A model generated the notes under the pieces. It worked only from the letters and a program-made list of their open reading frames with translations, ran no database searches and was not told the DNA's origin. Positions 1,291 through 64,000 of a DNA stretch of 64,000 nucleotides are shown in pieces. This DNA is from an uncultured Thermococci archaeon. GTDB lineage: Archaea; Methanobacteriota_B; Thermococci; Methanofastidiosales; B48-G16. The stretch lies in contig CAZQQT010000003.1 of assembly GCA_964595645.1 (NCBI GenBank), positions 1 through 64,000 of the forward strand. The letters are read 5' to 3'. The position numbers and the translations under genes are program-made. The first letter of the stretch is position 1. Every line of letters starts with the position of its first letter.

Positions 1291-1530
1291 AAGTAACTGT
1301 AACAACATAGTACACTTCCATGGGGATTTATCACACAAACAAGACACTGAGAAATTTGTAAGCGTATTAGCAGGGTAAAGGCCCAAAATATGCGATTTTC
1401 ACATACTTATTTTTTATGTATTTTATGAGTGTTAGTTAAATCGTAAATAGAGCCATTTTTATCCTGTAGATCTCACCACTTTTCTCTACGGCGATCGGAT
1501 CTTAATTACTATGAATTGTAGTAATTTCTT
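1291..1530 (+). repeat. IR-A copy 1: ~240-bp noncoding element; inverted copy at 61708..61950
   Basis: By-eye alignment to the reverse complement of 61708..61950 gives about 80% identity, with blocks identical over 20-30 nt (aagtaactgtaacaacatagtac; gcgattttcacatactt; gtattttatgagtgttagttaaatcgtaaata; cctgtagatctcac). Both copies end in a hairpin, aattacta-N7-tagtaatt, with different loops. No ORF lies in it. Confidence 0.7.
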
Positions 1531-1600
1531 AAAGATAAGCTTCACAAAGTCCATGAAACCTTAAGAAAAATAAGAGCGTTGAATAAGCTATTAGAAAAGA

Positions 1601-1807
1601 AAAAACTATTTATAGAATGAAAAGAATAGTATAACGATCAGGATGAGTAAAAAAGAGGAAGAAGGCATACGAGAGTTATACACATATCTTACTGACAACA
1701 AAGATAAGATGAGTGAGGAAGAGTACAGGGAGTTACAGGCGGATCTAAAAAAGACATTACTCCATGCACATAAAGAGAATAACATCTCAGATGAGTTTTT
1801 TGAAGAA
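1601..1807 (+). repeat. IR-B copy 1: 5' region plus first ~55 codons of the 1643..2500 gene; inverted copy at 56078..56283
   Basis: Near-identical DNA (about 95% by eye) from about 42 nt upstream of the ATG (aaaactatttatagaatgaaaagaatagtataacgatcaggATG) through codon ~55, ending at gatgagttttttgaaga. Confidence 0.8.
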
Positions 1808-2500
1808 TATCATGGAAAGCTAAAGAAGTTGGAAGAGAAAACGGAAATAAAAATCTGTCCACAGTGTTGGCATGATAATAAGCGAGATTCTGTGTATTGT
1901 GAAAACTGTGGATACAAGTTTGAAGAAATAAAAGAGGAGAATAAAAGGATCTCTTTGAAAAAAATCCTTCCTGTGGCCACCATTATAGTACTTATAGGGG
2001 TAGCGCTATACTTTACGTTACCTTGGGGCGAGACTCCCGAAACAACAATACCAACGACCACAGCACCTACCACCACATCAGTATCAATATGGACGACAGC
2101 TCCAACAACACCCGCCATTACGACTGCAAAGCATGATGATTTAGCATTCGTAAACTGGATGGACAGGATAAGTAGTCCGATAATAGCAGATCTTGAAAAT
2201 ATAAGTTACGCAGCAAACATGGAAAGTTTTAATTTACTGAATGAGTACGGCCTTGATCTGTATAATGATTGTAGCGATGCTTTGGATGAGATCGATGAAT
2301 ATGATGTATCACCAAAGTTAGGACCGGTACAACGAGAGTTTAGATTGGCTCTTTTAAATTATAAAAATGCTGGTGCAATATTGGCCGATGTGGGACCATA
2401 TGACACTAAAAAAATGGAAAGGGCTACAGACTACATGGAAACTGGAATGACACATATCAATGTAGCAAATGAATATATTGAAGAACATTATGAAGGGTAG
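1643..2500 (+). CDS. zinc-ribbon / single-TM / Thr-Pro-stalk surface protein (family member 1, carries the N-terminal module)
   Basis: 285 aa. N-terminal ~60-aa module MSKKEEEGIRELYTYLTDNKDK..., zinc ribbon CPQCW-x11-CENCGY, TM helice ILPVATIIVLIGVALYF, stalk TTIPTTTAPTTTSVSIWTTAPTTPAITT, then a C-terminal ~130-aa domain. Confidence 0.7.
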   Translation: MSKKEEEGIRELYTYLTDNKDKMSEEEYRELQADLKKTLLHAHKENNISDEFFEEYHGKLKKLEEKTEIKICPQCWHDNKRDSVYCENCGYKFEEIKEENKRISLKKILPVATIIVLIGVALYFTLPWGETPETTIPTTTAPTTTSVSIWTTAPTTPAITTAKHDDLAFVNWMDRISSPIIADLENISYAANMESFNLLNEYGLDLYNDCSDALDEIDEYDVSPKLGPVQREFRLALLNYKNAGAILADVGPYDTKKMERATDYMETGMTHINVANEYIEEHYEG

Positions 2501-2767: not shown

Positions 2768-2906
2768 CATCATGCAGTGTAGAAACTCAAGAATGCGCAA
2801 AATCAAAAGCTTTATTAAGGATCATATTCATAGTAACATGGAGATAGAGGGTATTTTCTAAAATAGAAACTTTAAAAAATCGTAAGAACTGAACCGAGGG
2901 TAAATA

Positions 2907-2991
2907 TGCGGGGGAGGGGATTCGAACCCCCGAACTCCTACGAGAATGGATCTTGAGTCCATCGCCTTTAACCTGGCTCGGCAACCCCCGC
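2907..2991 (-). tRNA. tRNA-Leu (anticodon CAA)
   Basis: Reverse complement reads GCGGGGGTTGCCGAGCCAGGTTAAAGGCGATGGACTCAAGATCCATTCTCGTAGGAGTTCGGGGGTTCGAATCCCCTCCCCCGC. It has a 7-bp acceptor stem, anticodon stem ATGGA/TCCAT with loop CTCAAGA (anticodon CAA), a long variable arm and a GTTCGAATC T-loop. No CCA is encoded. Confidence 0.85.
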
Positions 2992-3071
2992 AGGGGATAG
3001 TATTAGTGTGTATGCAGAGTTAAAAAATCTTGCGTTGTGAAAATGGATAAATAAAAAAGAGAAATATAACC

Positions 3072-52010: not shown

Positions 52011-52076
52011 GTCCTCGACGATGGAGCCACACCCCTACGAAAGCTTTTTAAATTGATTTCTGTTAGAGGATACCAT

Positions 52077-52151
52077 GCTCCGGTAGTGTAGACCGGTCAA
52101 TCATTCCGGCCTTTCGAGCCGGTGACTCGGGTTCAAATCCCGGCCGGAGCA
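52077..52151 (+). tRNA. tRNA-Glu (anticodon UUC)
   Basis: GCTCCGGTAGTGTAGACCGGTCAATCATTCCGGCCTTTCGAGCCGGTGACTCGGGTTCAAATCCCGGCCGGAGCA. 7-bp acceptor stem, anticodon stem CCGGC/GCCGG with loop CTTTCGA (anticodon TTC), T-loop TTCAAAT, discriminator A, no CCA. Confidence 0.85.
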
Positions 52152-52470
52152 TATTTACCCTGCATTTAATGCTCTCTGCTCTTTTTTTCCTTTTTTCCAG
52201 AAAGTATTTCCTATCTGTATGTTACTATGAACATAGTCCTTGATAAAGCTTTCGATCGTGGTCATTCTTGAGTTTCTATACTTCGTGATATGTATTATCT
52301 CACTCACAGAGATCGTGTCATATTCGGGCTCTCAGCGGTTCATATGCGACCTGTAGGATCCGAGAGAAGGGATTTATGACACTCTCCAACTGTAAGGTAC
52401 CAGAAGATCAATATCGCATTATCTTGTTTCGAAATACTTGGAGATCTGAAACTAATTTTAGATCGTATTT

Positions 52471-54408
52471 TTAAAGTTTCTCTAATCCACCTTCCTTTAT
52501 CTTTTTAGAATGTATCTTATCGGTGAAATATTCTTCTCCTTTCTCCCAAATTGTACTAATAGGCCCCATTAATCCGACAATCAAGGCAATGAGGAGAGGG
52601 AGAAACGTGGCTACATTCCGAAATAAATCCCATTCTTTATTGATTATACAATATACTAGTGGCAAGGAAAAAATTAGTATATAGCAACCTTTAAAAAACA
52701 GTATATATTTTTTAGCAGATTTTTTAGATGTTTTTCTTAATCTTTTTTTAATGCTTTCAATTTTTTCGAGCCACTCTTCATCTTTTTCTTTTTCTTTTTT
52801 AGAGATCTCTTTATCCAATTGTTCCGTGAATTCTTTTTCTTTTTCTTTAACTTTGCTTTTAACCCTCTTCTCTGGTAGTTTAGAAGCTTTTTCAATTTCT
52901 TCTAAGGCAAAATCTGGAGTAATCTCATCTAAATCACTCTCATCCATACCACTTAATGCATCTTCTATATAATTTTGGTAAAATAGCATTGAAAGCTTCT
53001 TGTCGTCCACTTTTTCTTCTTTTTTTAAAGTTTGAAGAGCATTATAAAATTTATCCCAAACTCGCCTGTTGACAAAGAGATCACGAGAATAAGTTCCAAT
53101 TATTGATTTGAGAGGAGGGTTAACATTCGGATCTTTTAACCATAAAACATTTGCTAGCAACCTGTCCAGAATGATTTCACATACAGTTCCCCTTTCTTTA
53201 TGTCCCATCCCTATAAAGTTAAATCTACTAAGTTTATGATCCGAAGTCAAAAAGAATACTTTCGCATTCTCTAATTTTCTAACTGGTTCCTTTCTAAATT
53301 CTTTAATCTTTTCAATGATAGCAATATCATGATTCTGATGAAAGGTGTTTTGGGAACCCTTCCACATACTCATCCGATCTCTGAGCCCATCATTGCACGG
53401 TCTGTACGCCTTTAGGTCTACATCAGTCCGTTCTATAGCTATTTCAAGTCTACGTAAGGTATTTCCGATCTCCATTACAAATTCTCTGGCGTCTGTTTTT
53501 CTCCAGCCTTTTCTCTTTAGACTACTATAAAGCGAATTAACTTTAATACTAGCAGGATAACGGTGAGCTTTTGTAATATAACCACTGATAACTTTACAAA
53601 TTTCGTTTATAGTAAAGTCAAATATTTTAAGGCTAAATCCAAATTCCTTAAGTAAGTTAAAAAGCTCTTTTGCAGGGTCATTGAACTCTGGACTGTGAAG
53701 ACCCAATACAAAAAAGGCAAAATTAGTATCTAAGAAAACTTGGCAATGTTCAAATTTTTTGGTTCTCATTTCAGTAATATCGGAAGTGTTTTCAACATGC
53801 AAAACCACTGAGATAACTGATCCTAGAACCATATCTTGTAGGATTTTATATTTTTCAGGTTTTTGTCTCTCCGCGAGTTTGATGTATTGTATTAAGAGAC
53901 GTTCCCGATCTTTTACTTCTTTTGAGATGGACAGTTCACTTATATTGGCAGAGGGGTTCATAAATTCTATGAGAGGATCAATATTTCCACAAAGAAAGGA
54001 AAGAAGTAGATCATAGATCTGTTCTTGAGTTAAAGAAACATTTTTCTTTCTAAAAAATTTTTCTAAATCTCCAATCAACGAATTAATCCTTCTATTAACT
54101 TCCTTATCAGTTTCAAGTCTAGATAAATACTCAAATCCATTCTCAGTGGGTTTATATTTTTTTTCAGTTTCTTTTTGTGTTATAAAATCTTTTTCTATAG
54201 CCCTATCCAAAATACTCCTGAGAACATGAAGTGGTATTTTTAAATCAAACTGTTTCTTTAATTGCCTTTGAATAGTTTTTAGACCTGAAAACTTATCTTC
54301 TGAGAATGTTTTTATAGCGAATGGCCAAAAACAATCAATATAGTCTCCCCCCTGATCATAAAGAGATTTTATAAGGGCATACGTGTAAATCAACCTTGTC
54401 ATTCTCAC
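52471..54408 (-). CDS. large hypothetical protein (N-terminal alpha-helical/wHTH-like region, PIN-like motif, C-terminal TM helices)
   Basis: 645 aa, AT-rich. Central VFLDTNFAFFVLGL resembles the first acidic strand of PIN-like nucleases. Lys/Glu-rich coiled segment, then two C-terminal TM helices (YILIFSLPLVYCII, FLPLLIALIVGLMG). Confidence 0.55.
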   Translation of the reverse strand: MRMTRLIYTYALIKSLYDQGGDYIDCFWPFAIKTFSEDKFSGLKTIQRQLKKQFDLKIPLHVLRSILDRAIEKDFITQKETEKKYKPTENGFEYLSRLETDKEVNRRINSLIGDLEKFFRKKNVSLTQEQIYDLLLSFLCGNIDPLIEFMNPSANISELSISKEVKDRERLLIQYIKLAERQKPEKYKILQDMVLGSVISVVLHVENTSDITEMRTKKFEHCQVFLDTNFAFFVLGLHSPEFNDPAKELFNLLKEFGFSLKIFDFTINEICKVISGYITKAHRYPASIKVNSLYSSLKRKGWRKTDAREFVMEIGNTLRRLEIAIERTDVDLKAYRPCNDGLRDRMSMWKGSQNTFHQNHDIAIIEKIKEFRKEPVRKLENAKVFFLTSDHKLSRFNFIGMGHKERGTVCEIILDRLLANVLWLKDPNVNPPLKSIIGTYSRDLFVNRRVWDKFYNALQTLKKEEKVDDKKLSMLFYQNYIEDALSGMDESDLDEITPDFALEEIEKASKLPEKRVKSKVKEKEKEFTEQLDKEISKKEKEKDEEWLEKIESIKKRLRKTSKKSAKKYILFFKGCYILIFSLPLVYCIINKEWDLFRNVATFLPLLIALIVGLMGPISTIWEKGEEYFTDKIHSKKIKEGGLEKL

Positions 54409-54610
54409 ACCTTGTCAACTAAATTTTCTATCATGTTCCTACTATAGAGATATAGTACTTTTGGTTTTTTAATCTTTTGGTCTTGCAAATTCAGTCGTTT
54501 ATTTTTTTATTTGACCTGCCTAATTTTCCTAAGCCCAATTGAGGGAGCTTTTTCAGTTCCTCTCACTCTTCTGACTCTCATCTCCAGATCCTTTATCTAA
54601 GAAAGAGACT

Positions 54611-56056
54611 TCAATCCCCAGCGCTTCCGCTTGCTGTCGCTATCACATAGGCTCCAGAGCTTGTAGTTTCTTTGTAGAGATGCTCATCCACATATATTTT
54701 AACTGTTACTGTTCCAGATTTTCCACAGTTCTGAGCAGAGATATACAAGAACTCTCCTCGTTCTGTTTTAAATGTATACTCCCATGGGACACTCACATTG
54801 CTTTCTTGAGCTGTTCCTCCCCCTACAGATGCGTAGGTAACATCCACTTCATCAGCTGTTCCTTCCACAACATACTTTACCCTGTATTCTCCATGCCCTG
54901 GAACTTCTGGTTTCGGTTCAGGCGTTTCTCTGGTAGTGGGCGTTGCAGAAAATTCCCATGAGGCTATGGGGTTGTCTTCTAACTCTTCAATTGTATTCCA
55001 CTCCATTGCCGACGTATAAATATTGACTTTAGCATCTCTGAAATCAATATTGACAGGTACTTCTATTGGTACCCATCCCTCATTTGTTTCATTAGGTTTT
55101 ACATCCCCACCGTAGTAAATGAAATCATCGGAGGCCTGATCCTTTGCTCCATACTTTTCCTCGTAGAAAAAGAATCTATGATAAATTTTACCATCATATT
55201 CTACGGTTACATCCCAAGAGGGAGCCCTTTGTATAGTTTCGTTCTTGTTTCTTTGTTTCACATAGATAAAAAGATACTTCATCCCCTGCGTTGGCTCGAA
55301 ATCAGTACCATAATCTGATCTATACATTGTAAGCTGATCGCACTTTGTTACAGAAATTTCCCATCTTTCTGTTTGTCCTCCGTAGTTTTTCATCTCGTAT
55401 ATTGTACTCTCGCCCAGTTTTAACGTAGGGCCTTTGTTTGGCGAGGGGGTGGTGGTAGGAGCTACAGTGGTGGGGCTTTCAGGCTCTACTCTAAAAACTA
55501 CCATGTGTTCTCCTATTTCAAAATCGTGCTCACCTATCCCTTGAGCCTCAAAATGAACATAATGGTCATTATTATACCCATGAGGCACATCGCTCACATT
55601 TATTTCATCAGTGTATGTAGTACGAGAGCTCATATCTATAATTGGTTTTGTGTACGAGTATGTTAGGGTAGTATCTCCCCTTCCACCGCTATTGTACAGT
55701 TTCAAATAGATCCTAACATTTTCTCCGGGTCTAAACACTTCTTTTTTCAGATACAATCCCCTTAATTCTATATCTGGGGGAGCTGTCGTAGAAGGAGCTA
55801 CTGTGGTAGTGGGTGTGGAGGTAGTCGAGATTGATGTTGTAGGGGCTGGCGTTGTGGTAGAAAGAGTTTCTGGTGTTTCTGCTTCTTCTCCCAAAGGAAA
55901 TACAAGATACACCACTGCAACAAGCACACCGATGGCGATAATTCCCGGTACTATCTTTTTCAACGGGATTCCTTTTTTCTCTTTTACTCCTTCCTCTTTG
56001 TTTCTCTTTATTTCTTCTTTAGTCCTTTCTGTCTTTTTTCCCATCTCTCCCTCCAA
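54611..56056 (-). CDS. TM / Thr-Pro-stalk surface protein (family member 2, body)
   Basis: Likely starts at ATG 56044 (MGKKTERT; SD ggaggga upstream). The listed ORF uses an upstream TTG. TM GIIAIGVLVAVVYLVF, stalk TTTPAPTTSISTTSTPTTTVAPSTTAPP, then a ~400-aa ectodomain. Homologous to 1643..2500 downstream of that gene's zinc ribbon. Confidence 0.6.
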   Translation of the reverse strand: MEGEMGKKTERTKEEIKRNKEEGVKEKKGIPLKKIVPGIIAIGVLVAVVYLVFPLGEEAETPETLSTTTPAPTTSISTTSTPTTTVAPSTTAPPDIELRGLYLKKEVFRPGENVRIYLKLYNSGGRGDTTLTYSYTKPIIDMSSRTTYTDEINVSDVPHGYNNDHYVHFEAQGIGEHDFEIGEHMVVFRVEPESPTTVAPTTTPSPNKGPTLKLGESTIYEMKNYGGQTERWEISVTKCDQLTMYRSDYGTDFEPTQGMKYLFIYVKQRNKNETIQRAPSWDVTVEYDGKIYHRFFFYEEKYGAKDQASDDFIYYGGDVKPNETNEGWVPIEVPVNIDFRDAKVNIYTSAMEWNTIEELEDNPIASWEFSATPTTRETPEPKPEVPGHGEYRVKYVVEGTADEVDVTYASVGGGTAQESNVSVPWEYTFKTERGEFLYISAQNCGKSGTVTVKIYVDEHLYKETTSSGAYVIATASGSAGD

Positions 56057-56241
56057 GGATTTACTTTCTCATAGTACTCTTCAAAAAACTCGTCTGAGAT
56101 GTTATCCTCTTTATGGGTATTGAGTAATGTTTTTTTTAGATCCGCCTGTAACTCCCTGTACTCTTCCTCACTCATCTTATCTTTGTTGTCAGTAAGATAT
56201 GTGTATAACTCTCGTATGCCTTCTTCCTCTTTTTTACTCAT
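56008..56241 (-). CDS. stand-alone N-terminal module ORF (family member 2, head), overlapping the body gene in another frame
   Basis: 77 aa, MSKKEEEGIRELYTYLTDNKDKMSEEEYRELQADLKKTLL... First 40 residues are identical to the N-terminus of 1643..2500. Ends out of frame relative to the downstream body ORF. Confidence 0.55.
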   Translation of the reverse strand: MSKKEEEGIRELYTYLTDNKDKMSEEEYRELQADLKKTLLNTHKEDNISDEFFEEYYEKVNPWRERWEKRQKGLKKK

Positions 56242-56283
56242 CCTGATCGTTATACTATTCTTTTCATTCTATAAATAGTTTTT
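56078..56283 (-). repeat. IR-B copy 2 (inverted copy of 1601..1807)
   Basis: See IR-B copy 1. Identity includes ~42 nt of upstream sequence. Confidence 0.8.
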
Positions 56284-56412
56284 TATATTTTCGAAAAAAG
56301 TTTATAATCTCGGGAGAGATATGGGCGATATGCATCGAGGTTTTAAAGAGACACAAAAAATCTAAAAAAAAAGAAAATATTTATATTTTTTATTTATTTT
56401 ATTCAGGGAAAA

Positions 56413-57489
56413 TCACCATTGTATCTCAAATTCAAAGTCATTTATCTCTACATCCCAACTTTCAGTACTCCCTTCGAATATAAACTTTGCATGTCCCTTT
56501 TCCATATCCAATGCACTAAAAATAACTACACCAGAAGCCTCAGTTCCAGATTTTATTTTTAAAGGGATTGTAGGATAATCTATATAAAGACTCCAATCGC
56601 TAAATTTTGTCTCAAATTGTCTATTTCCCTGTATAGCTACAGCATAAATATCGTAGAATGTTATTTCTTCGTTTCTCTCATTTTTTATTGTGAGATAAAC
56701 TCTTGTCTCGTCTTCTGCCAGTTCAACATAGTCTAAAGTCATTACGTATCCTTTATGATCCAGTGTTTCTCCTACGTTTACTCTCTCCATGGTTGGGGTC
56801 AGGAACTGTTTGGGATCGATTTTTGTAACGCTGTCTGCCGAAATGATCAAATCCCCCATTATATCCTTGCCTTCTATTGTACCTTCAACTCTCACAATTT
56901 CATCGTTTTTCGGTGTATATTCTCCCTCTGTATATACTGTAACACTTAGCCATGTATCATCTTTATCCGGATGGAAATAAAACCCGTACTTACCTTCTTC
57001 ACTCGTTTCTATACCTACTATGCCCATTAAATTGACTTTTGCCCCTTTATACTTTTCAGGGTTTTTAACTGCGGTGTTTCTTAAATTTTCATTTGTAATC
57101 AATTCGATAGGGGGAGATGGTGCAGCCGTTGTCGTTGGAGCAACTGTCGTTGTTGGTGCTGCTGTCGTTGTTGGTGCTGCTGTCGTTGTAGGTTCAGGTG
57201 TGGTGGTAGGAGCCTCTGTCTCTGCTGGTGTTGTCGTTGTTGTGGTACCATTTTCTTCGGTGGGAATACTCAAACACGTGCCAACAACAATTACAAGAGC
57301 AAACAATGTGATTAAAGCCCCTTTCTTCGTTTTGAAGAGGCTACTTAATATTTTTTTGATCGTGGATGTTTTTTGGTTACTTTCAGTCCTTTCTGTCTTC
57401 TCCTTAAAGTTGTATCCACAGTTTTCACAGTACAATGCATTCTCTTCATTTTCTGATCCGCATTGCGGACAAAACTTCTTCTCTCCCAT
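56413..57489 (-). CDS. zinc-ribbon / TM / Thr-Pro-stalk surface protein (family member 3)
   Basis: 358 aa. N-terminal CPQCGSENEENALYCENCGY, TM LITLFALVIVVGTCL, stalk TTTTTPAETEAPTTTPEPTTTAAPTTTAAPTTTVAPTTTAAPSPP, ~240-aa ectodomain ending FEFEIQW. Confidence 0.7.
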   Translation of the reverse strand: MGEKKFCPQCGSENEENALYCENCGYNFKEKTERTESNQKTSTIKKILSSLFKTKKGALITLFALVIVVGTCLSIPTEENGTTTTTTPAETEAPTTTPEPTTTAAPTTTAAPTTTVAPTTTAAPSPPIELITNENLRNTAVKNPEKYKGAKVNLMGIVGIETSEEGKYGFYFHPDKDDTWLSVTVYTEGEYTPKNDEIVRVEGTIEGKDIMGDLIISADSVTKIDPKQFLTPTMERVNVGETLDHKGYVMTLDYVELAEDETRVYLTIKNERNEEITFYDIYAVAIQGNRQFETKFSDWSLYIDYPTIPLKIKSGTEASGVVIFSALDMEKGHAKFIFEGSTESWDVEINDFEFEIQW

Positions 57490-57676
57490 ACATCTTGAAT
57501 GTCTCTTTTTTTATAAATAACTTTTCCCTCTTTCTGAAAGAAACGTTTATAAACTTCAACATCTCTGGAATATTGGAGGGTCTGGAGTGGTACTGTTTTC
57601 AAAGACCTCCCACACCCCTCTCCAGATCCTCCATATCCTCTTTTCAGGGTCCTATTCACTTTTGTTTTTCAACTGA

Positions 57677-58132
57677 TCAAAAGACTAAAATAAGTATGTC
57701 GAAAACAATGAAGAGCAATATAAAAGGTAAAAAAATCAAAAATACGAAGGATGCGATTGAAGGTGAGAGCAATCGAAAAATGAAAAATAAAAAAGATGAA
57801 ATAGATAATCCTGCAAAAAACAAAGCGCATACAAAGAAGATTTTACCTGAAAAAGTTACAAAATATTTTGAGTTTTCTATTTTGTCTCGAAAGAGTTTTT
57901 CTGTTTTAGAGGACGTTATATTTCTGTAAACCTCGAATAAAAGTACAGATAAACCAAAGAAAGAGGCAAAAAGGGCTATTATTTTTTCATTACTGAGTTC
58001 AATACGGATCATATCAGTAAATGTAGTTATAAAAATCAGAGAAAGAAGGAAAGAATACATTACTATGGCCTTGGCAATATATTCTTTTAATCCTTTCCTT
58101 TTTTCATTGTCCCTTGACTTTTTTTCCTTCAT
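57677..58132 (-). CDS. membrane protein (4 predicted TM)
   Basis: 151 aa, very hydrophobic, between the R-M gene and family member 3. Confidence 0.4.
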   Translation of the reverse strand: MKEKKSRDNEKRKGLKEYIAKAIVMYSFLLSLIFITTFTDMIRIELSNEKIIALFASFFGLSVLLFEVYRNITSSKTEKLFRDKIENSKYFVTFSGKIFFVCALFFAGLSISSFLFFIFRLLSPSIASFVFLIFLPFILLFIVFDILILVF

Positions 58133-58159
58133 CTAATCTTGGTACTCACTTAACAGCAT

Positions 58160-61100
58160 TTAGTAGTTATTTACTGTCTTTTCAATTGGTAGTACTACCT
58201 CGTTAGATTTAATTTTTTGAATCTGCTCCCTGATGTCATTGTCTTCTTTAATACTATTGAAAATTTCTTTTATCACAGCTAATTTTTCGTCTTCAGATTT
58301 TAAGTTTTCAATGCCTTTTAGATAGGGCTTAACCAATTCCATAAGAGTTGTTTCGAGTTTTTCTTCGAAGTAAAGCTCATAAATGAGAGAATCGATGATT
58401 TGCTCATCGATAAAACGAATGAGCTTTTCCTCTGAGCTTCGACGTTTTTCTGTTTCATTGAGAAAGAGCATATAGGTACAGAGGGTAATAAAAGGCTGTT
58501 GATTTTGGAGGGAGATTTTTTTAACTGGAAGTCTCTTGAAGTCATTAGGATAAAAGTAATACTCTATTCTATGCCTCCTAATTGTATTGAGATAAAACTT
58601 GGCGAATTTTGAGTTTAACACAGTTAGAATGTATTTGAGGTCAAAATTGGATGATATTTTCTCCAATTCATCTCTTGGCTTGTCAGTCCATTTCGTGATA
58701 CTCATAGTGATACTTCGGTTCGAAACAGACTTGAGACTTTCGTATCTCACCATCACATTGATACTATGGTTACATATTATTCCACTCTCATCATAGGTTC
58801 CATCTACCGTAGCTCCACGAATTATTTTGGGGTAGATATACAATTCAGGAAAAGTTGGCCTCCTAATTTTGGTAGGGCATCGTTCAGTATCCCATTCCAA
58901 GTATTTGGTTTTATTAATTGTGTACCTATCAATATATTTGGCCTCTACATAAGGCTTACTATTAATTCTTGTTTCAGTATCAGAAATTAGGTCGTCCTTT
59001 TTAAATTCGCCCTTAGCTTTTTTTTCATGAGCATTTAAAACCATACCAACACTTATAAAGCAGATATTTCCCAATAGCTCTGTATTTTTAAATGCGTCTT
59101 CAAAATCCATCGTGGGAGCTATTCTAAAAATCTTATTTATATCCTCAGATGGCTCAAGCTCTTCAATATTTCCAAAAGAATTAACATGCAAAATCCGCTC
59201 TGTCTTCTCTTCCTTTTCTTTATTTTCTACGATAAGTATAACATTTTCGACGCCCACTCCTCTGAAAATTTCAATATTTTCAAAAAAATCAACTTTTTTT
59301 AAATGATAATTTCCCAAAATAAATTTTTTACTCTTTTTAGCGAATTTTGAGGTATTAAATGACTTTGAAATTATGTATGAGAAAACTCCTCCCTCTGAGA
59401 TCGATTTTAGGCTTCTTTCAATGAAGGCAATGAAAAGATCCCATTTTTCATAAAACGTTTGGTATTCTCCTGTGTCCTCTAACACTTCTCTTAGTCTCTG
59501 ATATGTTTCGTCTTCGTTATCTGCCCGTACGTAGGGTGGATTTCCAATGATGATATCGAATCCTCTACCCTCTTGCGATTTTTTCGGATCGAAAACTTCA
59601 TAAAATTCAAATCCCCAGTGAAAAGGACTGAACTCATCAAATTCTTCTTGCGGAATCTTTATATCCTTAGATCTTAACGCTCTATAAAACTCTAAATCGA
59701 GTAATTCTCTTAATTTTTTGTCTATTTTTTCTATTCTTTTTCTCAAAGGTTTAAGTTCGCTATATTTTGCTTTTTTATACGTATGAACAAGGTTTTCTCT
59801 TTCTTCCAATAATTCATACAGTGAATTTTCCTTGGTCCAGTACTCTAAATTTGAGTGATCTCTATCTTGGAACTTACTGATATCCTTATACCCGACCAGA
59901 GTGTTCCCGCGTCTGAGATTATATTCTATATTTGGCAATGGCTTGATATCTTCTGGTTTATATGAATCTACAAGCCACAGTCATAACCGTAATTTTGTTA
60001 TTTCAATAGCATTAGGATTTATGTCTACGCCATACAAATTCTCTAAAAGAATTATTTTTTTAATAACAGAATCGGGATTTTTTATGTTCAGTTTATTAGA
60101 TATTTTTTTGATTAAATCGAATAATATATGAGCCGCTGCCAGTAAAAAGGCTCCAGAACCACAGGCATTATCACAAACGTTCAGTTTTAGTATGATTTTC
60201 TTCAAAATTTCATTTAAAGTTGTTTCATGAAGTATAAAGATTTCGTCAATGTTCTCAATCAACTCTGTCTCTTTATACTCCTTTTCTTCCTTCAAAAAAG
60301 TGTTTATCCTACCTATTAGACAAGAATAAATAGCATTTTCTGCAATATATCTTGTTATATACTTTGGCGTATAATAAGCACCCGTACCTTTCCTATCGGA
60401 AGCGGTCATCGCCCTTTCGAATATATAGCCCAATATCTCCGGATCTATTGAATCTCCATTGCCAAGAGACTCTTTATGTACAAACTTGAAACTATCCAAA
60501 AAATTGACCAGTTCTCTTAAAATTTCAGCCTTGATTCTGTAATTTGGATTTTTTTTCTCTACGTTCGTCTTGAGAAATAAACTCCCATTTAAGTATGGTA
60601 TGTCCTCGAAATTAGAGTCTATATCTACTCTTTCACTTTCTGGAGTATTCAAAACTCTAAAAAATAGTTGTTTTAATCGATCGTTCATGATATCTTGGTC
60701 TTGCTCAGCCAAATAGGCCAAAATATCTTTTTCGATAATCCCTTTCGATTGGAGAAATTTTATAAAGATCAATCGATCGACAATCACCTGAGCAACTTGC
60801 TCTCTACTTCCCAAATCCTCGATATTGAGGATATTCTGTATCAAACAGTCTTCTTCAGAGATCCGTTGTGTTTTATTCTCTCTATCTTTGTATCTCCCCC
60901 CATGCAACAAAGCGTTATACCATGCGTAAAATCTCTTTGTGATTTCCTCCTCTGTCTTATCAGAGATTACTCTTTCTTTTCCACGTAAAAAATCTTCAAT
61001 TTTTTCATGATCCTCTTTTAAATCAAGTTTTGCTGTTTCCTCACCATTTTTATCTATAAATATCCACGTCAATCCATCTGTAGCTATCCCAAACTCATAG

Positions 61101-61495
61101 TTATCTCTTACTTCGGCTAATCTGAATAATCCCTTTATCTGATTCACTGCACTATCCTTTCCTTTGTACAAATCGGCATTTATCGGTTTAACTTCTGCTA
61201 AAAACATTCTTCCTTCAGAATCTTTTATCCTATAATCCGCTTTTCGTATGGTACCCCTACTTGTTCTAAAATGCCTTTCTGGCAATACTTCCAAGTCTAA
61301 CAAGTTAAAGATTTTTTTAATGATAAATTTTTTAGTAAATTCTTCGGGGTCTATTTCCTCCTCTAAAAAAACAGACAAAAGCTTCCTTTTTTCTTCAAAA
61401 ACCCTTTTTCTTCCGTTAAGAGTCATCCTTTTTCGAATACCAGCTATAATACTTACAATAACATCGTTAGTTAATAGGCTATTTTTATTTTTCAT
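58160..61495 (-). pseudogene. Type IIG restriction-modification fusion enzyme (PD-(D/E)xK nuclease + gamma-class N6-adenine MTase + target-recognition region), interrupted by one in-frame TGA at 59981..59983
   Basis: Upstream part (61495..59984) has the nuclease motif ADYRIKDSEGRMFLAEVKP and MTase motif I CDNACGSGAFLLAA, ending ...NAIEITKLRL-TGA. The same frame continues LWLVDSYKPEDIKP-LPNIEYNLRRGNTLVGYKD ... with MTase motif IV IIGNPPYV and a ~500-aa C-terminal region. The two listed ORFs are in the same frame (all codon first positions = 1 mod 3). The second listed ORF merely restarts at a TTG. Confidence 0.7.
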
Positions 61496-61707
61496 ATACT
61501 CTCAACATCTATCATTTTTCAAATTTTTAAAAGTTTCCCTTATAGCAAACCAAAGTATTCGTATTTCAAAATTCACGTGTATATCAAAGTTTTATGTAGA
61601 GGTTTTGAAATTTTTTTATTTCTACTAATACTTTTTAAAAAATATTGATAAAATTTAACACTCAAATATTTCCCAAGGTCTCAAGGATTTCCATAGGACC
61701 GATCCTA

Positions 61708-61950
61708 AAGAAATTACTACATACCGTAGTAATTAGATACCGATCCCCTTTCAAGGAAAAATCAGTGAGATCTACAGGACAGAAACGGCTTTATTTACGA
61801 TTTAACTAACACTCATAAAATACATGAAAAAGAAGTATGTGAAAATCGCATGTTTTGGGCGTTTACCCTACCTATCACGCTTACGCATTTCTCAGGTTTC
61901 GCTTGTGTGGCAAGGTCTCCCTGGAAGTACTATGTTGTTACAGTTACTTG
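61708..61950 (-). repeat. IR-A copy 2 (inverted copy of 1291..1530)
   Basis: See IR-A copy 1. This copy carries an extra perfect palindrome AGTTACT-TG-AGTAACT at 61942..61957. Confidence 0.7.
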
Positions 61951-62347
61951 AGTAACTTAAATCTTAGATGGTATTTTTTTGTCAAAGATTGTCAGTAATT
62001 ATAAGACATTGGGATCGATACGCTCCAGTGAGGGGGCATACTTCTCTTTACAGTCCCTTTATTCAGAGGAAGGGAACTCTCCGATACGGGCATCTCACAG
62101 CATTCGGGGGCAGTATGCCCTTATTCATCGATACTTTGAGGCAAAGTGTTCAATATTGTAAAGTAGTACTCTTTCTCCAGAAGTGATTTTTTGTCAGTAA
62201 TAGCAGGTCTCAGTAATAGTTTACTTACAAATTAAGCATTTTGGTAGTTTTTTTCCATGGAATTTCAGAGTTTTTGTAAGTGGATTTGTCAGTGAACGAC
62301 CATTTTTGTAAGTTATTAGTAAGTTGTTTTACAAAGTTTGTACAATG

Positions 62348-63271
62348 TTATTCTAACTTTGGCACCATGGCAATGAGCTTTCTCACTACTACCCTGTCTG
62401 GAATCATCTCTCCATTGGGCCATGAGAACTTCCTCTCCACTCTCAGTGCAGGATAACTCGCCATGCGTTTACTGTACACGTTGATGGTATTGTTGTTCCC
62501 GCTGAGCTTCATTTTTATGTTCTCTATACGGTTTTTGTTAATGCCTATGTAATCTGCATTGAGTTCGAGTCTGTTGATACACGTCGATCTTGGGAGATTT
62601 TTGAGGAGCCTATAGAACTCCAAGATGGAGAGGGGATTTTCCGTACAGTGGAGGTAGGAGGTAACCGTCTCTTCTCCCCTGCTGTTCTCGGGAAGTTTTA
62701 CCTCTCGGTTTTGCCCGATCTCTACCCCGAAAAAGGTAGTATCTGTGAGGTGTTCGGGGGGGGGACTCACCCCCCATTCTTTCGTGGTATGGGTCATCAT
62801 GAGATTGTGGAATCCCAGTACTACATCTCCAGAGTGATAATGTTCTACATGCAGATCAAAGACGTGTAAGTACTGGTACATCCCATGGCCCCACGGAATC
62901 AGGAACCCTTCATCTCTTAACGCATATATGTACTTTCTTACCGTATTCTTGGAACGATTGAGATCTTTTGAAATTTCTTTGATAGTGAAAGCACTTTCCT
63001 TTTCTTTTATTTTTTTGAGGTACTTCTCCATGGTAACTGACTGTGTATTTCCAAAAATTTTTGTGAGGTCCTCTCGATCTCTTTCCTCCAGCATCTCGGG
63101 ATTGGTAACGATGCTTTCGGTTCCCCACGGATTTTCGAGATTGGATTCCCTTGTTACTGCCGAGTCACTCATCTTTGTTTCCTCCCACTTCAAGAACCGC
63201 CAGTGCCATGGCTCGTACGATGGGATCACCTGACTGAGCAAGTTTCTGGAGCCACTCCTTATTTTCTTCAT
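62348..63271 (-). CDS. hypothetical protein with winged-helix HTH
   Basis: 307 aa. Central FTIKEISKDLNRSKNTVRKYIYALRDEGFLI helix-turn-helix. Rest unassigned. Confidence 0.5.
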   Translation of the reverse strand: MKKIRSGSRNLLSQVIPSYEPWHWRFLKWEETKMSDSAVTRESNLENPWGTESIVTNPEMLEERDREDLTKIFGNTQSVTMEKYLKKIKEKESAFTIKEISKDLNRSKNTVRKYIYALRDEGFLIPWGHGMYQYLHVFDLHVEHYHSGDVVLGFHNLMMTHTTKEWGVSPPPEHLTDTTFFGVEIGQNREVKLPENSRGEETVTSYLHCTENPLSILEFYRLLKNLPRSTCINRLELNADYIGINKNRIENIKMKLSGNNNTINVYSKRMASYPALRVERKFSWPNGEMIPDRVVVRKLIAMVPKLE

Positions 63272-63438
63272 AGTACTTTTTAATAGATTTCATAAAACTA
63301 ATTTTAGCCCTTTATTTAAATAATATATAGATTATTAAACTATTTTTGGAAATTGAACAGGTTTAATCAAGTGATCTAATTAAACCGATAGCTTGAAGGA
63401 TCGAAAGATTAATAATTACAAGAGAAAACTTTTGTTAA

Positions 63439-64000
63439 GTGGTTTATTTGAATGAGAGAGACACCCCACAGCATGAACAATATATTGAAAATTTCTTCGA
63501 TACATCAGACCAAAGAAAAATTGGAGGATACATTGGTAAGGTCAACGTTTTGATTAGCATAAAAAAGTTTTATGAGAAAAAAGGAAAATGGCCTGTACAA
63601 AAAGAATTGAGTGAGATGGCCGGAATCGAAAAGAGCACGATCTCTAATATTGTAAAGGAACTCCATAACAACGAACTCATAAAAAGGAGCCCTCGACCCA
63701 GTGGAGGTCTTTATTGCTGTATCTTATCTTCCTTTCTATCTAACTTTCGAGCTATTGAGGACCTCATAACATTCTCATTTAACCAAAAACGATATGGATT
63801 AATTTATGGTCTCATTAAATATTTTGATTACGTGGAACTCTTGAGTGAGTTTTATGACAAAAGTGATCGGGGGAGGGAAGAGTTCATTCACAGGATCCCC
63901 GATGAACTTTTTGACATTGCCCCAGTTGCCGAGTTACTTTCTGAGAAGATCTGCTCCAGTAAGGGATTCAGAGAGGAGTGTACTCGGTTATGTGAGTTTC
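63439..64000 (+). CDS. partial ORF running off the window end; HTH (MarR/ArsR-like) protein
   Basis: Open frame from the TAA at 63436..63438 to the window end with no stop. Candidate GTG/TTG starts at 63439/63448 and an internal ATG at 63605. The ORF contains an HTH segment: SEMAGIEKSTISNIVKELHNNELIKRS. Absent from the ORF track because it lacks a stop within the window. Confidence 0.35.
   Translation, partial: MVYLNERDTPQHEQYIENFFDTSDQRKIGGYIGKVNVLISIKKFYEKKGKWPVQKELSEMAGIEKSTISNIVKELHNNELIKRSPRPSGGLYCCILSSFLSNFRAIEDLITFSFNQKRYGLIYGLIKYFDYVELLSEFYDKSDRGREEFIHRIPDELFDIAPVAELLSEKICSSKGFREECTRLCEF

Follow-up and report, generated by a model that had tools for sequence, protein, structure and literature searches.

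At the pRN-type origins of archaeal plasmids, conserved non-coding stem-loop regions lie beside the rep genes. Archaeal integrative elements that carry 'classical' (non-suicidal) tyrosine integrases target the 3' ends of tRNA genes (Badel et al. 2021, PMC8371274). In Thermococcales, inverted integrated elements serve as substrates for large chromosomal inversions through the pTN3 integrase (Cossu et al. 2017, PMC5495485); this enzyme is of the SSV/pTN3 'suicidal' type, and its homology-driven activity, which was demonstrated experimentally, is reported to recombine DNA segments as short as 104 bp. Here we analyzed a stretch of 64,000 nucleotides from an uncultured archaeon (contig CAZQQT010000003.1, positions 1 to 64,000; hereafter the window), in which a sequence that we call IR-A occurs twice in inverted orientation. 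What had the appearance of a free-standing conserved repeat, a candidate RNA family or an inversion substrate is in all probability the shared backbone of two islands adjacent to tRNA genes, and deserves to be annotated accordingly.

When the window was compared with itself by blastn, positions 1291-1584 (+) were matched to 61949-61653 (-) in an alignment of 301 columns with 79.7% identity (E = 1.3e-62), and a MAFFT alignment of the two copies gave 230 identical columns out of 299 (77%). The inverted match of ~80% between 1291..1530 and 61708..61950 that was reported in a preliminary description of this DNA is thus confirmed, and blastn carries it approximately 55 nt further in the 3' direction, to 1584/61653. 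Copy 1 (1291..1584, +; blastn) is non-coding and lies at the tRNA-distal edge of a left island, and copy 2 (61653..61949, -; blastn and nhmmer) is internal to an integrative element of ~14 kb on the right. When an nhmmer profile built from the two copies was searched against the window, a 9-kb extension of it and all fetched loci, only these two copies were found.

The four identical blocks quoted in the preliminary description were all recovered, namely 1291-1313 (23 nt), 1390-1408 (19 nt), 1416-1449 (34 nt) and CCTGTAGATCTCAC, which falls within an identical run of 15 nt. The longest perfect runs, of 34, 23, 19 and 15 nt, are separated within 300 bp by stretches of only ~65-70% identity. A central conserved core of 60 nt (1390..1449, +; equivalent to ~61851-61792 in copy 2) carries 2 mismatches, and an AT-rich core is located at 1404-1427. 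Of 20,000 permutations of the string of matches and mismatches, 0.5% contained a run of 34 or more, and 0.005% attained the observed total of 91 for their four longest runs, indicating that identity between the copies is clustered rather than uniform, and that the clustering is not due to chance. In terms of sequence, this clustered conservation argues for some constraint on IR-A. The absence of a plausible ORF, also noted previously, was borne out, with stops in six of six frames and no ORF that could be considered common to the copies. A 12-codon candidate (MRFSHT...) does occur in both, but was rejected in light of the fact that both of its differences are non-synonymous; the remaining small ORFs are not common to the two copies.

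The inverted-repeat pair is real but not solitary, since self-comparison identified IR-A as the first of three collinear inverted blocks. Block 2 pairs 1600-1824 (+) with 56284-56060 (-) at 95% identity over 226 nt; its left copy is made up of a consensus promoter (AAACTATTTATA, 1603-1614) followed by the opening ~60 codons of a gene for a 285-aa protein, and its right copy of a promoter and a 77-aa ORF (56241-56008). Block 3 pairs 2769-2929 (+) with 52289-52129 (-) at 73% identity, and reaches at its end into the 3' end of a tRNA gene, which is a different one in each island. On the left, where it forms the tRNA-proximal end of the island, it ends ...AGGGTAAATA against the 3' end of tRNA-Leu(CAA), which flanks the left island (2906..2992, -; identified by ARAGORN and by Rfam at 53.7 bits). 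On the right, it begins TATTTACCCT immediately after tRNA-Glu(TTC), the integration target of the right element (52076..52152, +; ARAGORN and Rfam). The same ten bases, TATTTACCCT, start both islands directly against the tRNA 3' end.

The islands also differ from their surroundings in composition, with a GC content of 33-38% versus 44-49% for the flanking host genes; the values for 52153-61652 (0.348) and 1585-2905 (0.364) are both distinct from the host composition. In both islands, all genes between IR-A and the tRNA lie on one strand. From this architecture, IR-A is very probably a non-coding backbone segment of two related integrative elements adjacent to tRNA genes, and its copies are inverted and 60 kb apart because the two tRNA genes point in opposite directions. 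The islands exchanged sequence after their divergence, since the identities of the blocks differ and the homology of block 2 stops in the middle of a gene. On the right, the 77-aa ORF (-) overlaps a 481-aa ORF (54611-56056, -), an arrangement that is a recombination or frameshift chimera, and the left counterpart is an intact 285-aa zinc-ribbon gene. Block 3 holds a small ORF in both islands (2772-2861, +, and 52155-52307, -; ...RNSRM..I.SFIKD..HSN..I...), whose coding status is doubtful, because identity is ~85% at the nucleotide level but ~59% at the amino-acid level. Archaeal RqcH, RLI/ABCE1 and NreA genes are also present in the window, and mark the host as an archaeon.

The right island was followed past the end of the window on a short-read contig (Logan SRR7048220_21662, hereafter L004), which overlaps 61796-64000 at 100% identity and extends 9.3 kb further. 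A 13-nt direct repeat, CCCGGCCGGAGCA, corresponding to the 3' end of tRNA-Glu, is found at 52139-52151 (attL core) and again at L004 7153-7165 (window-equivalent 66107-66119), beside the integrase gene. These repeats place the element between 52152 and window-equivalent ~66119, a span of ~13,970 bp. The second copy is followed by a T-rich tRNA trailer and lies 63 nt upstream of the start of an integrase gene located shortly beyond the window (L004 7228-8448). The gene is intact and encodes a tyrosine integrase of 406 aa (Pfam Phage_integrase, 1.9e-24), which carries SAM-like N-terminal domains and a C-terminal zinc ribbon. To judge from these features, the right island is a complete integrative element, with the 13-nt repeats as its predicted att sites.

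Read on its own strand, the element consists of attR, the integrase, a 460-aa gene on the opposite strand, a 307-aa HTH_11 gene, ~6 iteron-like repeats and IR-A, followed by an MmeI-like restriction-modification (R-M) gene, membrane and zinc-ribbon proteins, block 2, a 645-aa gene, block 3 and attL/tRNA-Glu. A cargo of 5.4 kb, present in the right island only, is situated between IR-A and block 2 (56285..61652, -), and encodes the MmeI-like type IIG/IIL R-M protein (58160-61495, -), a 151-aa membrane protein and a 358-aa zinc-ribbon protein. The R-M gene occupies one frame with a single in-frame TGA (...AIEITKLRL*LWLVDSYKPEDIKPLPNIEY...), with methyltransferase motif I before the TGA and NPPY after it, and the TGA is probably an inactivating nonsense mutation. 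The 645-aa protein (gene at 52471-54408, -) has no Pfam domain and belongs to a large uncharacterised family, with >280 matches at 40-56% identity; members of this family are found in bacterial and archaeal mobile elements, as well as beside DISARM-like defence genes.

The left island (1291-2905, 1.6 kb) has retained no more than IR-A, the promoter and gene that follow it, and the end that adjoins the tRNA. Its gene (1643-2500) encodes a 285-aa zinc-ribbon membrane protein. Between the end of IR-A (1584) and block 2 there is a gap of ~15 nt, at the place where the right island has its 5.4 kb of cargo, and in a three-way alignment the left sequence passes from the IR-A side to the block-2 side of the right island within ~10 nt. 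This difference at the junction reflects cargo that was either carried on the right or lost from the left. No integrase is in view for the left island within the window, and a repeat of the tRNA-Leu end, which would represent a second att, was not found in 1-1300, where the best local alignment was no better than those of shuffles. The sequence to the left of 1291 shows no similarity to the right element, and is likewise low in GC (0.36 for an MPG glycosylase gene). The left island may thus be a short relative or a remnant, or part of a larger island. We note that positions 100-260 hold short fragments that resemble the start of a PAS-type sensor (...WILDSDYNILKINRAAVDV...), without a full gene. 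In addition, a 1.4-kb short-read contig that covers 26-1445 ends near window position 26, which hints at another repeat or a rearrangement just left of the window.

The surroundings of IR-A were analyzed with a 12-nt BRE/TATA matrix trained on the upstream regions of 27 window genes. The promoter motif of the window, AAAC(C/T)TTT(T/A)TA(A/T)A, is in most cases located 33-35 nt ahead of the ATG, and at this distance from the start codons host mRNAs should be mostly leaderless or carry very short leaders. The matrix also recovered the promoters of the two tRNA genes, neither of which had been used for training, with scores of 13.6 and 11.4 at the expected distance upstream. It gave a score of 13.1 at 1603 (AAACTATTTATA), 19 nt past the end of IR-A copy 1, and of 10.1-10.4 at 61646-61645, at the end of copy 2, so that in both copies IR-A ends within ~20 nt of a promoter-like site directed toward the tRNA. 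Inside IR-A, no score above 6.5 was obtained on either strand, and the best scores upstream of the two copies were 5.3 and 2.6, with no conserved site there. A promoter within the AT-rich core was considered and rejected, as both core mismatches hit the best TATA-like stretch and matrix scores are low. As a separate observation, the 12-mer AAACTATTTATA serves as the promoter of both divergent genes that flank copy 1, at 1138 (-) and 1603 (+).

Both copies of IR-A also contain a palindrome, AATTACTA-TGAATTG-TAGTAATT at 1504..1526 and AATTACTA-N7-TAGTAATT at 61712..61734, with identical arms and different spacers. A pattern search returned exactly 2 matches to AATTACTA-N7-TAGTAATT in the window, both in IR-A, with 0 expected in shuffles, in agreement with the identical 8-bp stems and different loops of the preliminary description. 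A ninth pair is U.G in one copy and C-G in the other, and a small GGGU-AAAN-GCCC hairpin is likewise kept in both. The 'perfect palindrome' AGTTACTTGAGTAACT attributed to copy 2, on the other hand, turned out to be a 7+2+7 inverted repeat, in which two 7-bp arms surround a non-symmetric 2-nt spacer. The AU-rich hairpin of 8-9 bp is the only robust structural element of IR-A, and can be read equally well as a dyad-symmetric DNA site.

Three identities had been proposed for IR-A, and of these only the shared leader or regulatory element survives, as a candidate, on the grounds of position and conservation. It had also been considered that the similarity might be explained by IR-A being the upstream part of a duplicated gene block; this is largely what we found, since the left IR-A runs into the promoter and 5' end of the duplicated gene. 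Overall, IR-A is best explained as the shared backbone of two integrative elements plus a cis-acting control region, a combined reading to which we give about an even chance. The more specific proposal that IR-A acts in cis as control-region DNA bound by element-encoded proteins is put forward tentatively, and falls short of an even chance. According to this proposal, IR-A would be an upstream control region placed directly before the promoter that heads the tRNA-ward gene array, and its conserved blocks, together with the AATTACTA-N7-TAGTAATT palindrome, would be candidate binding sites for element-encoded DNA-binding proteins. We favour it because of the promoter-like sites, the co-directional gene array, the dyad with fixed arms, the adjacent winged-helix genes and the repeats that share ATTACT.

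Further observations speak for and against a control region. The arms of the palindrome are invariant, its spacer is free and it is found only in the two copies. With two copies only, conservation may date from the active past of both elements and says nothing about a present function. The palindrome centre is ~95 bp upstream of the 1603 promoter, beyond typical archaeal operator or activator sites, and the identical runs, at 19-34 nt, are longer than one would expect of simple transcription-factor sites. Two winged-helix genes adjoin IR-A in the right element and could encode the proteins that bind it. The promoter-like site at 61646, which falls within sequence very rich in AT, could be spurious. 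Adjacency to the block-2 promoter is not essential, because the right island tolerates 5.4 kb inserted at that point.

A role in maintenance at the DNA level, with IR-A as all or part of a replication origin, partition or packaging site that would function with the iteron-like repeats and the winged-helix proteins, seems to us rather unlikely. Such a role would be in keeping with the 852 nt of gene-free sequence at 61496-62347, where ~6 iteron-like direct repeats (61975..62320, -; ATTACTGACAAAAA / ACTTACAAAAA, or TTTTTGTCAGTAAT / TTTTTGTAAGT when read on the + strand) occupy the interval that separates the orphan gene for the 307-aa HTH protein from IR-A copy 2, itself with an AT-rich core and a stem-loop. 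An ATTACT core is common to these repeats and to the dyad arms of IR-A, and motifs of this type are locally enriched, with 5 in ~500 bp versus ~0.8 per kb window-wide in a post hoc count. Iterons are absent within IR-A, however, and are equally absent beside copy 1 in the left island, which has no candidate initiator either.

The 307-aa HTH_11 gene (62348..63271, -; Pfam HTH_11, 5.9e-07), an orphan located upstream of the iteron-like repeats and IR-A, gave an AlphaFold model that is unusable (pLDDT 32). The 460-aa winged-helix (MarR/DnaD_N-like) protein, whose gene has its 5' part at 63439..64000 (+) and is complete at L004 8451-9833, shows in its N-terminal winged helix a weak resemblance to DnaD_N, phage replication protein O and 'replication initiation' PHROGs, but these matches are all below curated cut-offs. 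PDB sequence searches with the two winged-helix proteins gave no significant match, nor could a helicase, primase or Rep domain be recognised in the right element.

It is also unlikely, in our estimation, that IR-A is the functional core (an origin or maintenance site, or a regulatory RNA with a non-canonical promoter) of an archaeal integrative-element family that has not been described before. In that case, the left island of 1.6 kb would be a non-autonomous derivative that keeps IR-A as a target of the trans-acting proteins of the element. If IR-A were indeed an origin or a regulatory switch, it would offer a handle on a lineage without genetic tools.

The small structured ncRNA family put forward in the preliminary description found no support, and we consider it improbable that IR-A gives rise to a small ncRNA, from one strand or the other, or to a long 5' leader, in which the hairpin would serve for structure or for termination. 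The stem that is kept with a free loop and one U.G to C-G change, the conserved GGGU-AAAN-GCCC hairpin, the clustered conservation without coding potential, and the T6/T7 runs found on the reverse strand just outside the 1291/61949 boundary in both copies would all suit an RNA. Yet Rfam 15 identified only the two tRNAs at gathering score, and only noise at E values up to 10 on 1100-1700. Folding was no better than that of dinucleotide shuffles, with z values of -1.03, -1.23, -0.71 and +0.82 for the whole of IR-A (two copies, both strands) and of -1.2 to +0.85 for six sub-regions on both strands, and the MFE structures differ between the copies. In RNAalifold, run on two sequences only, the pairs are almost all invariant, and double changes amount to 2 in 50 predicted pairs on one strand and 0 in 46 on the other, which yields no usable covariation. 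A host-type BRE/TATA is neither present inside IR-A nor conserved upstream. Rfam, folding and the promoter matrix thus provide no positive evidence for an independent IR-A transcript. As for a leader, the left-island gene downstream of IR-A does not need one, because it has its own consensus promoter ~30 nt from the ATG.

Finally, IR-A could be devoid of function at present, as the surviving backbone of diverged elements in which the identical runs are short patches of gene conversion. Exchange between the islands is clear, with block 2 at 95% identity versus 73-80% for its neighbours and homology that ends mid-gene, and the left island has a degraded appearance, with neither an integrase nor another att in view. 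We still hold this to be distinctly improbable, since four perfect runs of 15-34 nt within 300 bp would be an unusual pattern for conversion tracts, and the runs include a palindrome that keeps its arms but not its spacer. The remaining proposal of the preliminary description, a MITE-like relic of a non-autonomous transposon, can be dismissed as extremely improbable: a short non-coding sequence that occurs more than once would suit such a relic, but neither in 1291-1584 nor in 61653-61949 are the two ends inverted repeats of each other, there are no flanking target duplications, and the only two copies detected by nhmmer in the window and fetched loci are both in register with two further homologous blocks.

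The additional copies in relatives that the preliminary description suggested looking for were not found in the plasmid, phage, viral, genome and metagenome collections searched. Distant blastn searches of PLSDB plasmids and INPHARED phages with IR-A gave no match. In IMG/VR, exact 17-21-mers of the conserved blocks and the hairpin pattern returned either nothing or seed-only matches without flanking similarity, and the 19-mer IR-A core had no match in GTDB genomes, a set that does not include the source genome; scans of this kind, with exact seeds, have little power to detect non-coding DNA that has diverged. Three JGI metagenome contigs that match the 19-mer core were rejected as chance, with a common sequence of just 21 nt. 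At the protein level, the 307-aa and 285-aa proteins matched only themselves among 5.8 billion proteins. The nearest integrases, at 63-64% identity, are encoded on two short MAG contigs (L007 and L008), one of which is labelled Methanomicrobia, and no IR-A adjoins either of them; the next nearest, ~40% identical, are on haloarchaeal plasmids. The 645-aa cargo protein was rejected as a route to related elements, being widespread but in unrelated defence islands and mobile elements.

The inverted copies of IR-A (80%) and of block 2 (95%, 226 nt) could in principle mediate an inversion of 54-60 kb. Logan short-read contigs end inside the repeats, at 61796, 61821, 56255 and 1445, with 61796, 61821 and 1445 located in or at the edge of the 34-nt run; ends within the repeats are expected, because de Bruijn assembly breaks there. 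IR-A is an ordinary kind of object, a shared mobile-element backbone at tRNA genes in a poorly sampled archaeal lineage. What is documented along with it is a complete integrative element of ~14 kb from an uncultured archaeon, with defined att sites, a zinc-ribbon-tailed integrase, an interrupted R-M gene and several orphan genes.

When compared to pRN-type origins, IR-A is similar in being a conserved intergenic stem-loop segment, downstream of a gene for a DNA-binding protein in an integrative element. It differs in that the right element has no recognisable Rep protein and there is no sequence similarity, and an origin function would here be putative. The situation described for pTN3 in Thermococcales (PMC5495485) resembles the present one in that two related elements lie inverted at tRNA genes, here with common segments of 225-300 bp; the difference is that the integrase of the right element is classical, and that the copies of IR-A are only 80% identical, without a perfect run above 34 nt. 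Likeness to the classical archaeal elements (PMC8371274) comes with the following differences: an integrase with a C-terminal zinc ribbon and relatives at only 63-64% and ~40% identity, 307-aa and 285-aa backbone proteins without homologues, and no recognised replication or virion module. As in those elements, the right element has an intact tyrosine recombinase gene at one end and is bordered on either side by a short direct repeat taken from the tRNA 3' end, and it is low in GC, rich in orphan genes and equipped with R-M defence cargo, with relatives at different tRNA genes (PMC8371274).
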